64,000 nt of DNA from NCBI RefSeq assembly GCF_030699305.1, contig NZ_JAUYNB010000031.1, forward strand, positions 6,492 through 70,491, written 5' to 3'. This document shows positions 56,756-63,880 of the stretch, one piece after another (within the stretch, counting starts at the first letter, position 1; each line of letters opens with the position of its first letter). The notes beneath the pieces are model-generated. The model did not search any database, had not been told where the DNA came from, and saw only the letters and a list, made by a program, of their open reading frames with translations. Both the position numbers and the translations under genes were made by a program. The DNA comes from Novosphingobium sp. Lineage in GTDB: Bacteria; Pseudomonadota; Alphaproteobacteria; Sphingomonadales; Sphingomonadaceae.

Positions 56756-60120
<3,365 letters not shown>

Positions 60121-61810: not shown

Positions 61811-61898
61811 GCCCTTTCCCGGTGGGGAAGGGGTGGGATGGGGGCCTATCCTGTCGAGGTATAAACCCCACCCCAACCCCTCCCCACCGGGGAGGGGC
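61811..61898. repeat. REP-like inverted doublet, second sequence family
   Basis: GCCCTTTCCC-GGT-GGGGAAGGGG TGGGATGGGG ... CCCCACCCCAA CCCCTCCCC-ACC-GGGGAGGGGC between convergent genes. Confidence 0.8.
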
Positions 61899-61946: not shown

Positions 61947-62891
61947 CTATTCGGGCAGCGTGCCGGGGCGTGAGCCGTAGACCCGGCCGCCGCCGCGTTT
62001 GCGCAGCCACAGGATCGACCAGTCACCGTTCACCAGCCGTCCCGCCAGCCGCATCCCGGCGCGGCGGCAGGCGGCGCGCACTTGCGGTTCCTGCGTTTCG
62101 AGCAGTCCGGCCAGCAGCAAGTGCCCACCCGGCACCAGTGTGCGGGCAAAATCGGGGGCGAGTGAAATCAGTGGTCCGGCCAGAATATTGGCGATCACCA
62201 GATCATATGGCCCGCGTGCGGCCAGCAGCGGATGGTCCATCCCATCGGCCACCAGCATGATCAGTTCACCGGGCCGCGCACCTATTGCTATGCCGTTCAG
62301 CGCGGCGTTGTCTTCCACCACGCCGACGCAGACGTGATCGATATCGCTCGCCGTGGCCAGCGCACGCGGCCACAGGTCCAGCGCGGCGAAGGCCAGCAGG
62401 CCCGTGCCGGTGCCGATATCGGCGCAGTTCTTCACCGCCACGCCGCTGCGCTTCATCGCGTCCAGCATGGCGAGGCACCCGGCGGTCGTGGCGTGCTGGC
62501 CGGTGCCGAACGCCTGACTGGCCGGAATGCAGAAATCGCGCACCCCCGGCTCGTTCAGCGGCGGATGGTCTGGCGTGTGAACATGGAACCGTCCGGCGCG
62601 GATCGGCTCCAGCCCCTGCTGGCTGGCGGTCAGCCAATCGGTTTCGGGCAGTTGCTCCAGATCGAACCTGGGCGGCTTGCCCGCGAACAGGCCGGTCAGC
62701 GCGGCCTTGTCGGCGCGGGATGGCTTGCGCGGCAGCCACGCTTCCAGCCGCCAGTCGTCCGGCTTGTCCTCGGCGATTTCGCTGCCGGATATGACGATGT
62801 CTGCGTCCCAGTCGAGCGCGTCCTCATGCGCCAGCAGCGCGCCTTCGATCACGGCGCGGGGGGCGTAGGTGGTGAGTTTCCAGCTGGTCAT
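61947..62891 (-). CDS. prmA: Ribosomal protein L11 methyltransferase
   Basis: SQAFGTGQHATT, DIGTGTGLLA, ANILAGPL, LLLAGLL. Confidence 0.93.
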   Translation of the reverse strand: MTSWKLTTYAPRAVIEGALLAHEDALDWDADIVISGSEIAEDKPDDWRLEAWLPRKPSRADKAALTGLFAGKPPRFDLEQLPETDWLTASQQGLEPIRAGRFHVHTPDHPPLNEPGVRDFCIPASQAFGTGQHATTAGCLAMLDAMKRSGVAVKNCADIGTGTGLLAFAALDLWPRALATASDIDHVCVGVVEDNAALNGIAIGARPGELIMLVADGMDHPLLAARGPYDLVIANILAGPLISLAPDFARTLVPGGHLLLAGLLETQEPQVRAACRRAGMRLAGRLVNGDWSILWLRKRGGGRVYGSRPGTLPE

Positions 62892-63880
62892 TTGCTTTCC
62901 GCCTCCCTGGCCAGCCGCTTGGCGAGGCGATCGCTCCCCCCGGCGGCATAGGCGATGCAGGCGCGCGGCTGGGCGAGCGCTGCCCTGCCGGAAAGCCGTT
63001 CCAGCAGGGCGCTGCCACCCGGATGCGGGGTCAGCAGTACGTCGCACGGCAAGGCCTCGATCACACGCAGCCCGGCGCGGGCTGCCTCGATCCGGTCCGG
63101 GTGGGCGGTAAAATGGTAATCGTCGGCGGAAATCGTGTTCGTGGAATCCGCATAGGCCACCGTCAGGCACTGGTCCGCTGCGCAGCTTTGCCAGGTCCAG
63201 CTGGTCGATCCGGGCGAATGAGTGGGGTTGGCGTGGAGGGTGAAGCGTGTTCCGCCCACCACCAGCGCGCCGCCATGGCGCAGCGTGCGGTCGACCCGGA
63301 CGGGGGCCATCGGATATTTCGCCAGCCAAGTCGCTTGCGGGTCGTGTGCATCGGCCTGACCGTTGCGCATCGCAGCGGCCGCGTCCTCACCCACGGCCAG
63401 CCGCGCGCCGGTCGCCCGCTGGATCGCAGCCATGCCGCCGACATGGTCGAAATGTTCATGCGTCATCAGCAGCCATTTGACCTGCCGGGGCTCGAACCCC
63501 AGCGCCCGGATATTGGCGAGCACGTGCGGCGCGGCCTCTTCCGGGCCGGTATCGATCAGCACCAGCCCGGCAGCGGTTTCGACCAGCACCACGGTGATCC
63601 CGCACGTGCCGACATACCAGCTGCGGCCATGGATATGCGTCGGCGGAGCCGGATCGGACCAGCCGTCACGCCCCGCGCAGGCCCCCGCGATGTCCTTGCT
63701 GGCACCCGGCGGGCTCGCCAGCGGGGCGGGGGCGGCGCCGAGCAGCAGCGCAAGGGCAAGACCGCTCACCACCCCCCGGCCCCCTCCTCTGAAGAGGAGG
63801 GGGAGTCGAGAGCGCCGCCGTGAAGCCCCATCCTCTTCAGAGGAGGGGGTTTTGGGGTGGTGGGGGGCGTCAGCGAACAT
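62888..63880 (-). CDS. Subclass B3 metallo-beta-lactamase
   Basis: GWSDPAPP..WYVGTCGI, LIDTG, THEHFDHVGG (HxHxDH), THSPGS, LLTPHP; signal peptide; start uncertain (63880 or a GTG near 63769). Confidence 0.88.
   Translation of the reverse strand: MFADAPHHPKTPSSEEDGASRRRSRLPLLFRGGGRGVVSGLALALLLGAAPAPLASPPGASKDIAGACAGRDGWSDPAPPTHIHGRSWYVGTCGITVVLVETAAGLVLIDTGPEEAAPHVLANIRALGFEPRQVKWLLMTHEHFDHVGGMAAIQRATGARLAVGEDAAAAMRNGQADAHDPQATWLAKYPMAPVRVDRTLRHGGALVVGGTRFTLHANPTHSPGSTSWTWQSCAADQCLTVAYADSTNTISADDYHFTAHPDRIEAARAGLRVIEALPCDVLLTPHPGGSALLERLSGRAALAQPRACIAYAAGGSDRLAKRLAREAESK
63767..63863. repeat. Solo palindrome doublet of the DUF559-associated family (R6 63780-63803, R7 63826-63849)
   Basis: CACCACCCCCCGG-CCCCCTCCTCTGAAGAGGAGGGGG-22 bp-CCCCATCCTCTTCAGAGGAGGGGG-TTTTGGGGTGGTGG. 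Confidence 0.92.

Follow-up and report, generated by a model that had tools for sequence, protein, structure and literature searches.

This analysis concerns a 64,000-nt stretch of DNA from Novosphingobium sp. (contig NZ_JAUYNB010000031.1; the whole stretch is called the window here) and, within it, a palindromic repeat doublet at the start of a metallo-beta-lactamase (MBL) gene. Counted from the ancestral start codon, the MBL open reading frame (ORF) occupies 62888-63880 on the minus strand. That codon is an ATG (MFA...) at 63878-63880, and it is the start used in 106 insert-free orthologue clusters. The product matches Pfam Lactamase_B (4.9e-22) and scores 270.4 bits against the NCBIfam model NF033105, above its cut-off of 240, which places it in the subclass B3 equivalog. 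The closest named family is MIM, at 308 bits and under that family's own cut-off of 640. The translation contains THEHFDH, and all zinc ligands are intact. An SDR gene precedes the MBL gene, and its stop codon, TGA at 63870-63872 on the minus strand, already lies in the MBL reading frame, among its first 11 nt. On the other side, prmA (61947-62891, minus strand) is translationally coupled to the MBL stop through an ATGA overlap, and this coupling is an additional reason for keeping translation through the MBL ORF. A first-pass annotation, made by reading the sequence, had placed the doublet at the 5' end of the beta-lactamase gene. The doublet does lie at the MBL start; it is not intergenic, because the SDR/MBL overlap puts it within the MBL coding sequence. 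The first 38 MBL codons consist of MFA, three junction codons, and a 32-codon element, after which come the hydrophobic core and the mature enzyme.

The doublet has the structure first described for it, a leader and a hairpin separated by a 22-bp spacer from a hairpin and a leader, and an inverted-repeat search and direct reading of the sequence agree on this. Its inverted-repeat arms (63762-63803 and 63826-63867) are 42 nt each, 83% complementary, and 22 nt apart. Each arm is made of a CACCACCCC leader and a 24-nt GC hairpin. On the plus strand, the doublet opens with the type-2 leader CACCACCCCCCGG (63767-63779), recognized both in the sequence and by the inverted-repeat search; on the minus (gene) strand this leader reads ..CCGGGGGGTGGTG and gives two in-frame GTG codons, at 63772-63770 and 63769-63767. 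Hairpin 1 (63780-63803, plus strand), CCCCCTCCTCT-GA-AGAGGAGGGGG, folds alone at -21.4 kcal/mol, and its 3' arm, as read on the mRNA strand, includes GGAGG 10 nt ahead of the first GTG. The 22-nt spacer AGTCGAGAGCGCCGCCGTGAAG (63804-63825, plus strand) is weakly conserved among copies, roughly CTT...GGCGC... on the gene strand. Hairpin 2 (63826-63849, plus strand), CCCCATCCTCT-TC-AGAGGAGGGGG, has one stem mismatch and folds alone at -15.4 kcal/mol. The type-1 leader TTTTGGGGTGGTG (63850-63862), which reads CCCCCCACCACCCCAAAA on the gene strand, is extended by GGGGG (the two together at 63850-63867, plus strand) and adjoins the SDR stop. The 6-nt gap to that stop reported in the first-pass annotation is right: the TGA at 63872-63870 is 6 nt past 63863, where the annotation had ended the doublet, and 7 nt past CACCAC.

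As a whole, the doublet can form a long hairpin. The two long-hairpin folds have energies of -74.6 and -87.1 kcal/mol (z = -6.4 and -8.6), the first of them being that of the mRNA-sense strand, so the stable mRNA hairpin expected earlier is supported. A search of the doublet region against Rfam matched no family, and no terminator- or promoter-like site was found on either strand between 63400 and 64000. After the hairpins the mRNA strand reads CTTCAC.. and CCGGGG.., with no U-tract, and the hairpins therefore do not qualify as intrinsic terminators. The hairpin core of the doublet occurs 6 times in the window against 0.01 expected. The remaining copies lie on either side of a DUF559 gene located between recN and ligA, in keeping with the shared architecture that had been noticed for the recN-side repeats. 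In a second sample of the groundwater study from which the window comes, a contig covers 63684-63885 with zero differences; it is identical across the doublet, and an assembly artefact is thereby ruled out. Read depth is 355-540 in the repeat and 73 in the flanks (5-7x), as expected of a multi-copy repeat. No empty allele is visible among the contigs of the window's own groundwater population.

That the doublet was inserted is seen by comparing filled and empty junctions. An MBL protein search returned 1,522 relatives, and the best 120 clusters, 68-100% identical to the window MBL, were analysed. A metagenome scan with the MBL alignment, for which the peptide patterns were too general, added one further close orthologue (L124, empty). 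In the orthologous loci, the order SDR-MBL-prmA is conserved, with the SDR stop inside the first 11 nt of the MBL frame (a ATGTTCGCTAG-type overlap). The MBL protein begins M[FSY]x[KR], directly followed by the hydrophobic core, in 106 of the 120 clusters. The empty loci L001/L002, L003, L124, L005/L006, L209, and L098 read ..TATGTTCGCTAG|GCTCGCACTGGCG.. across the junction, and the repeat is absent from them. The window reads ..TATGTTCGCTGA-CGCCCCC-[CACCAC...GTGGTG]-AGCGGTCTTGCC.., with the ancestral ATG at 63880 retained and the element placed 7 nt past the SDR stop, which is after MBL codon 6. By this comparison, the doublet is a lineage-specific insertion. It behaves as a mobile element in that it is present or absent at orthologous sites and has many dispersed copies. 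An ancient sequence shared by all orthologues, the condition under which the first-pass annotation would have withdrawn its claim, is not what was found: the nearest loci are empty and the filled alleles are polyphyletic.

The repeat family of the doublet (family A) occupies this junction in 7 of the 120 clusters: the window, P0089/L004, P0029/L205 (a triplet), P0036/L206, P0104/L208, P0016/L204, and P0051/L207. In five other clusters the junction holds an unrelated long palindrome, family B (GCCTTCGACAGGCTCAGGCTGAGCGGG...CCCGCTCAGGCTGAGCCTGTCGAAGCC, read as ..FDRLRLSG..AQAEPVEA..). An example of family B is at L210:299-460, and the others are P0007, P0030, P0049, and P0118; it sits in frame at the SDR|MBL junction in at least two separate lineages. 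All clusters with a truncated N-terminus are accounted for as family A, empty, or fragments. The Sphingomonadales metagenome-assembled genome L098 (1-300, 5368-5929) has an empty junction, although the same 8-kb stretch carries a DUF559 gene flanked by doublets on both sides; the presence of the family nearby is therefore not by itself enough to fill the junction.

The insertions at this junction did not descend from a single event. In a maximum-likelihood tree of 119 mature MBL domains, many forks of which are weakly supported, each of the seven family-A and five family-B alleles is a singleton among empties, giving 12 state changes. The window belongs to a 99%-supported clade with three empties, and P0036, P0089, and P0104 stand in otherwise empty clades with support of 99%, 96%, and 98%, respectively. 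Approximately unbiased (AU) tests reject the monophyly of filled alleles for family A (p = 6e-123) and for family B (p = 1.8e-5). The SDR flank (last 120 nt) agrees: the window is nearest to the empties L003 (89%) and L001 (87%), as against 76-82% to other filled alleles, and L206 is nearest to the empty L098 (93%). The distance of the insert from the SDR stop also differs among filled alleles (4, 7, 7, 8, and 11 nt). The phylogeny and the flanks together indicate that the junction has gained family A at least four times and family B at least twice, independently. The idea of a single ancient insertion was rejected on three counts: the shape of the tree, the AU tests, and the identities of the flanks.

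The inserts are open in the MBL frame. Translated from the ATG at 63880, the minus strand gives [55 protein letters not shown] with no stop, in agreement with the in-frame reading given earlier. In the five fully sequenced family-A alleles, the stretch that begins with the ATG and closes with GTGGTG measures 114, 114, 159, 114, and 117 nt, and it is stop-free in all five. These distances arise from different combinations of offset and length (18+96, 19+95, 15+144, 18+96, and 22+95). An element length that is inherently a multiple of three was considered and ruled out, because doublets elsewhere are 83-138 nt long and fall into all residues modulo 3 (11:6:5); they are also often closed in a given frame. 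The family-B alleles are in frame with the ATG in 5 of 5 cases. If a GTG start were sufficient, out-of-frame inserts would be expected among intact genes, and none was found in the sample of intact MBL ORFs.

The placement of the element follows a rule that is seen across its family. An exact-pattern scan with one genome per species, in which the copies per genome are lower bounds, matched at least 117 stretches. All of the matches listed are from Sphingomonadales, and the genera among them are Novosphingobium, Sphingopyxis, Erythrobacter, Porphyrobacter, Sphingorhabdus, Sphingobium, Altererythrobacter, Croceibacterium, and others. In 882 kb of matched stretches plus the window (118 loci), there are at least 248 hairpins in at least 193 arrays. 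Single leader-hairpin units are the most frequent form (106 arrays), followed by hairpins without a recognizable leader (32), inward pairs (28), and outward doublets (22), the type to which the studied element belongs. Outward doublets are asymmetric, with CCACCACCCCCAA-hairpin-CTTT at one end and CACCACCCCCC(G/A)(G/A)-hairpin-AG at the opposite one. No target-site duplication was detected, since flanking direct repeats average 1.92 against 2.07 +/- 0.21 in shuffled pairings.

Gene contexts were assigned with a simple gene finder based on GC content at third codon positions (GC3), which gives exact stop positions and approximate starts, and 184 arrays could be placed. They lie between tandem genes (100 arrays; 428 background gene pairs), convergent genes (47; 110), and divergent genes (11; 103), with 6 arrays inside ORFs and 20 for which a flanking gene is missing on one or both sides (no background applies to the last two classes). 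Relative to the background, arrays are enriched in convergent and depleted in divergent contexts (chi2 = 30.6, p = 2e-7). The distance to the facing stop codon peaks at 5-10 nt (mode 7-8), and very few copies come nearer than 5 nt. Between tandem genes, the count at 5-9 nt past the stop is 17 arrays, where 4.0 are expected under uniform intergenic placement (z = 6.8; Kolmogorov-Smirnov p = 6e-6); the sides that face gene starts have no such peak. The idea of a dispersed family that favours gene junctions is hence borne out and can be sharpened: the repeats favour positions shortly past stop codons, at the 3' ends of genes. The copy at the MBL gene keeps the post-stop spacing although its site falls inside the next gene. 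Single units (for example L008, L049, L052, L084, and many others) mostly show the order stop, 5-10 nt, TC-loop hairpin, and then TTGGGGGTGGTG, so that the hairpin faces the gene end and the leader points away. In-frame family copies also occur inside RecF, LigA (two loci, different positions), a DnaE2-like polymerase, and RNase R. The intragenic copies are at L010:7275-7386, L016:3129-3222, L020:1952-2053, L026:4895-5009, and L043:6374-6461.

Taken as a whole, the explanation that we hold to be probable, with moderate confidence, is that a REPIN-like non-autonomous element inserted into the signal-peptide codons of the MBL gene and is translated in frame, and that the extension is cleaved off. 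The element would be a non-autonomous palindromic mobile unit of about 96-105 bp, with two inverted CACCACCCC-leader/24-nt hairpin units around a spacer. It would have inserted in the window lineage alone, about 7 nt past the SDR stop, in the usual landing zone of the family (5-10 nt). The SDR and MBL genes share an 11-nt overlap, and this landing site therefore falls inside codons 4-6 of the B3 MBL, within its signal peptide. Only those insertions would have survived that keep the translationally coupled ATG at 63880 in frame and stop-free. The element would then be translated as about 35 extra residues of the n-region, MFA-[[35 protein letters not shown]]-SGLALALLLGAAPAPLA, of which the last (..FR GGGRGVV) may bring positive charge and make up some of the hydrophobic core. 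The whole extension would be cut off by signal peptidase, leaving the mature enzyme unchanged. Ribosomes coming from the ATG would melt the hairpin of -75 kcal/mol, which probably lowers or modulates the yield. Translation by read-through from the ATG at 63880 is, on the evidence of frame, charge, and fold, reasonably likely, and across the filled alleles the element is most likely translated as a signal-peptide extension of 32-48 residues.

The first-pass annotation had left a choice between a longer signal peptide and a new GTG start, and the evidence favours the former without proving it. In the latter case, the element would have replaced the start: translation would begin at the GTG GTG of the terminal leader, GGAGG would serve for ribosome binding, the hairpin would throttle expression, and the frame of the old ATG would be irrelevant. 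Such a replacement agrees with the GTG GTG sharing the frame of the MBL body in each of the seven filled alleles, with GGAGG 10 and 13 nt upstream of the two GTGs, and with the automatic gene calls, which start at the element GTG in every filled allele (at the second GTG in the window call, P0001). It should leave the old-ATG frame free to drift, yet that frame is kept and open in 5 of 5 family-A and 5 of 5 family-B alleles. The GTG-start calls (L204-L208; 63767-63772 in the window) also yield proteins of 290-293 aa with a short and uncharged signal peptide: lysine or arginine ahead of the hydrophobic core is found in none of five GTG-start versions versus 106 of 106 empties, and the core is weaker in three of the five. 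The read-through form puts ..LLFR-GGG(W/R)GVV immediately ahead of the core. Furthermore, both the GTG codons and GGAGG are base-paired within the -74.6 kcal/mol fold, and ribosomes terminating on the SDR gene would be about 100 nt upstream, so that translational coupling would be lost. On balance, we consider a replaced start unlikely. Several points nevertheless weigh against translation of the element from the ATG. In 7 of 7 alleles the right end of the element falls in the identical frame (..GVV) and has GGAGG 10 nt upstream, and a selected GTG start would look alike. For a Sec signal peptide, an n-region of 38 residues that includes EED is unusual. The sample consists of intact MBL ORFs only, and it therefore shows in-frame survival and not the frequency of out-of-frame insertion. 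The contigs of L204 and L207 end inside the repeat, where short-read contigs often break, and the frame comparison covers the remaining five filled alleles. The evidence on the start codon is indirect, given that the runs holding the window sequence are DNA metagenome runs (groundwater). The number of truly independent events, from four to seven, hangs on a tree with many weak forks, and the part of DUF559 in moving the element, treated below, is putative.

An effect at the RNA level was also weighed. A 3' stem-loop could stabilize or end the SDR transcript and largely silence MBL and prmA, in which case the frame would still be open because the event was recent. The very stable structure and the position of most family members 5-10 nt past stops, as in REP-type 3' stabilizers, are what such a role would predict; a U-tract or terminator-like site is absent, however, the MBL ORF is intact, keeps all zinc ligands, and scores above the B3 equivalog cut-off, and prmA is coupled downstream. 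Moreover, the filled alleles differ from their nearest empties by at least 13% in protein sequence and keep the frame through compensating offset and length, which is not expected of a silenced gene, and we regard this role as improbable. Still less probable, indeed very improbable, is that one old insertion was spread by junction recombination or was precisely lost many times. Some filled alleles do share residual signal peptides (VVLAL[TS].., VVAACA[ST]L..), elements without a target-site duplication might excise precisely, and the weak forks of the tree leave it some room. Against these stand the AU tests, which reject one clade for each family, the SDR-side flank, which also places the window and L206 with empties, the varying insert positions (4, 7, 7, 8, and 11 nt) with one allele being a triplet, and the unrelated second palindrome family at the same spot.

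Elsewhere in the window, 6.5 kb from the MBL doublet, the repeats are linked to a nuclease gene. An array of three hairpins with outward leaders (56764-56890, plus strand) begins 8 nt past the recN stop, just after which the first-pass annotation had also seen a repeat start, and ends just ahead of a DUF559 ORF (56908-57240, plus strand; Vsr-like, PD-(D/E)XK; Pfam PF04480, 1.7e-30). A second array (57257-57339, plus strand), a leader-hairpin, spacer, and hairpin with no right leader, lies between the DUF559 gene and the ligA start. About 12% of the at least 193 arrays adjoin a DUF559 gene. Among the loci selected by repeats, 12 have a DUF559 gene, 57-66% identical, that is directly flanked by arrays with leaders facing the gene. 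In 11 of these 12, from several genera, the gene lies between recN and ligA; the exception is L048, beside a prmC-like gene. DUF559-repeat loci include the window (56764-57339), L012, L016, L017, L022, L035, L064, L069, L091, L093, and L098. This sample of 12 is biased towards repeats, and the bias was removed by taking 120 clusters chosen on DUF559 homology alone. In 89 of these 120 homologue clusters, and in 69 of the 76 of those with at least 140 aa, hairpin-derived peptides are found inside the called DUF559 ORFs (..[14 protein letters not shown].. before the DUF559 domain and ..[13 protein letters not shown] after it). Such repeat-derived tails lengthen many of the 150-195-aa DUF559 proteins in databases (P0121-P0240).

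The pairing of DUF559 and the repeat is, on these comparisons, real, and the syntenic gene is probably inherited vertically. DUF559 is a candidate for the enzyme that mobilizes the repeat. The Caulobacter DUF559 protein VsrA behaves as an SOS-induced Vsr-like endonuclease (PMC12907096), and from this behaviour a housekeeping role of DUF559 with hitch-hiking repeats is also conceivable. Among the papers searched, none ties DUF559 to repeats of any family or reports the Sphingomonadales repeat studied here. That the recurrent insertions came by local hopping from the DUF559 locus nearby is not supported, as the test for clustering of extra copies was negative: there are 0.1 extra arrays per 8-kb chunk with the recN-DUF559-ligA locus versus 0.59 in other chunks. 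A broader proposal, which is possible and which we offer tentatively, is that the doublet would be the non-autonomous form of a mobile system with no earlier description, whose hairpin repeats would be propagated by a Vsr-like DUF559 protein and not by an HUH transposase, and would be set 5-10 nt past stops. Where genes overlap, this targeting might lead to repeated, frame-keeping colonization of signal peptides, the n-region serving as a safe harbour and as a source of N-terminal novelty.

Among known systems, REPs and REPINs with their RAYT transposases (PMC3116915, PMC3337134, PMC3733652) are similar in several respects. They are short GC-rich palindromes, single or in inverted doublets able to form one long hairpin; they lie mostly downstream of genes, are depleted between divergent genes, and lack a target-site duplication. 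The studied doublet has the REPIN architecture of two inverted units, a short spacer, and a single long hairpin. It lacks the REP tags GTAG and CGTC; its units end in CACCACCCC(N2-4) on one side and in CTTT or AG on the other. The CGTC at 63868-63871 is part of the flank and the SDR stop, and other copies do not have it. As in a REPtron, one associated gene is bracketed by inverted repeat copies at a fixed chromosomal place and is probably vertically inherited, but that gene encodes a Vsr-like PD-(D/E)XK protein of DUF559 and not a RAYT (an IS200/IS605-like HUH tyrosine transposase). The other half of the earlier REPIN/MITE-like label did not hold. [quoted passage not shown] In contrast to MITEs, there is no evident parent insertion sequence with a DDE transposase, and the ends are hairpin units. 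An origin as a MITE derived from a DDE transposon was rejected, because the inverted repeats are present without the target-site duplication.

RPEs and intragenic REPs are in-frame palindromes in alphaproteobacterial protein genes that are tolerated as extra peptide (PMC10969869, PMC3733652). Intragenic REPs are reported mainly in replication and repair genes, with different REPs at about the same site of recB (PMC10969869, PMC3733652). The studied family is similar in that it is found in frame in the MBL signal peptide, RecF, LigA, the DnaE2-like polymerase, and RNase R, and in that the frame stays open after insertion into an ORF, as in 5 of 5 filled MBL alleles. The CGTC tag of RPEs (PMC3733652) is absent here, a comparison made with the description of the tag. 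For RPE/CGTC-type repeats, PMC10969869 and PMC3733652 name no bracketed nuclease or transposase gene, and the present insertions, unlike RPEs, are in a cleaved signal peptide instead of a mature protein and recur at one gene junction. Brucella's Bru-RS1 and Bru-RS2 repeats, palindromes some 103-106 bp long from intergenic regions of alphaproteobacteria (PMC10800456, citing Halling and Bricker 1994), are alike by description; that account mentions no associated nuclease gene or in-frame insertion.

Three features set this case apart: the insertion lies in a cleaved signal peptide, one junction of overlapping genes was hit repeatedly, and there is clear evidence that the frame was selected. With many empties, at least four gains of family A, and at least two of family B, the junction offers a natural series. 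It suggests that a cleaved signal peptide can absorb 32-48 palindrome-encoded residues and that only frame-preserving insertions persist. The spacing of 5-10 nt past stops, kept even inside the next gene, points to targeting over mere tolerance, and it gives a concrete assay for the mobilizing enzyme, with DUF559 as the candidate. There is also a practical side. B3 MBL genes called from the element GTG have a truncated, uncharged signal peptide, and resistome catalogues and expression constructs that follow such calls may be wrong. The hairpin of -75 kcal/mol within the first 40 codons probably modulates the yield of this environmental carbapenemase-type enzyme and of the coupled prmA product. 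At the far end of prmA, between it and a TPR/barrel gene, the window carries a palindrome of another family (CCCTTTCCCGGTGGGGAAGGGG..CCCCTCCCCACCGGGGAGGGG, 61811-61898), whose hairpins point outward and whose C-rich leaders point inward, the geometry of the 28 inward pairs of the studied family.

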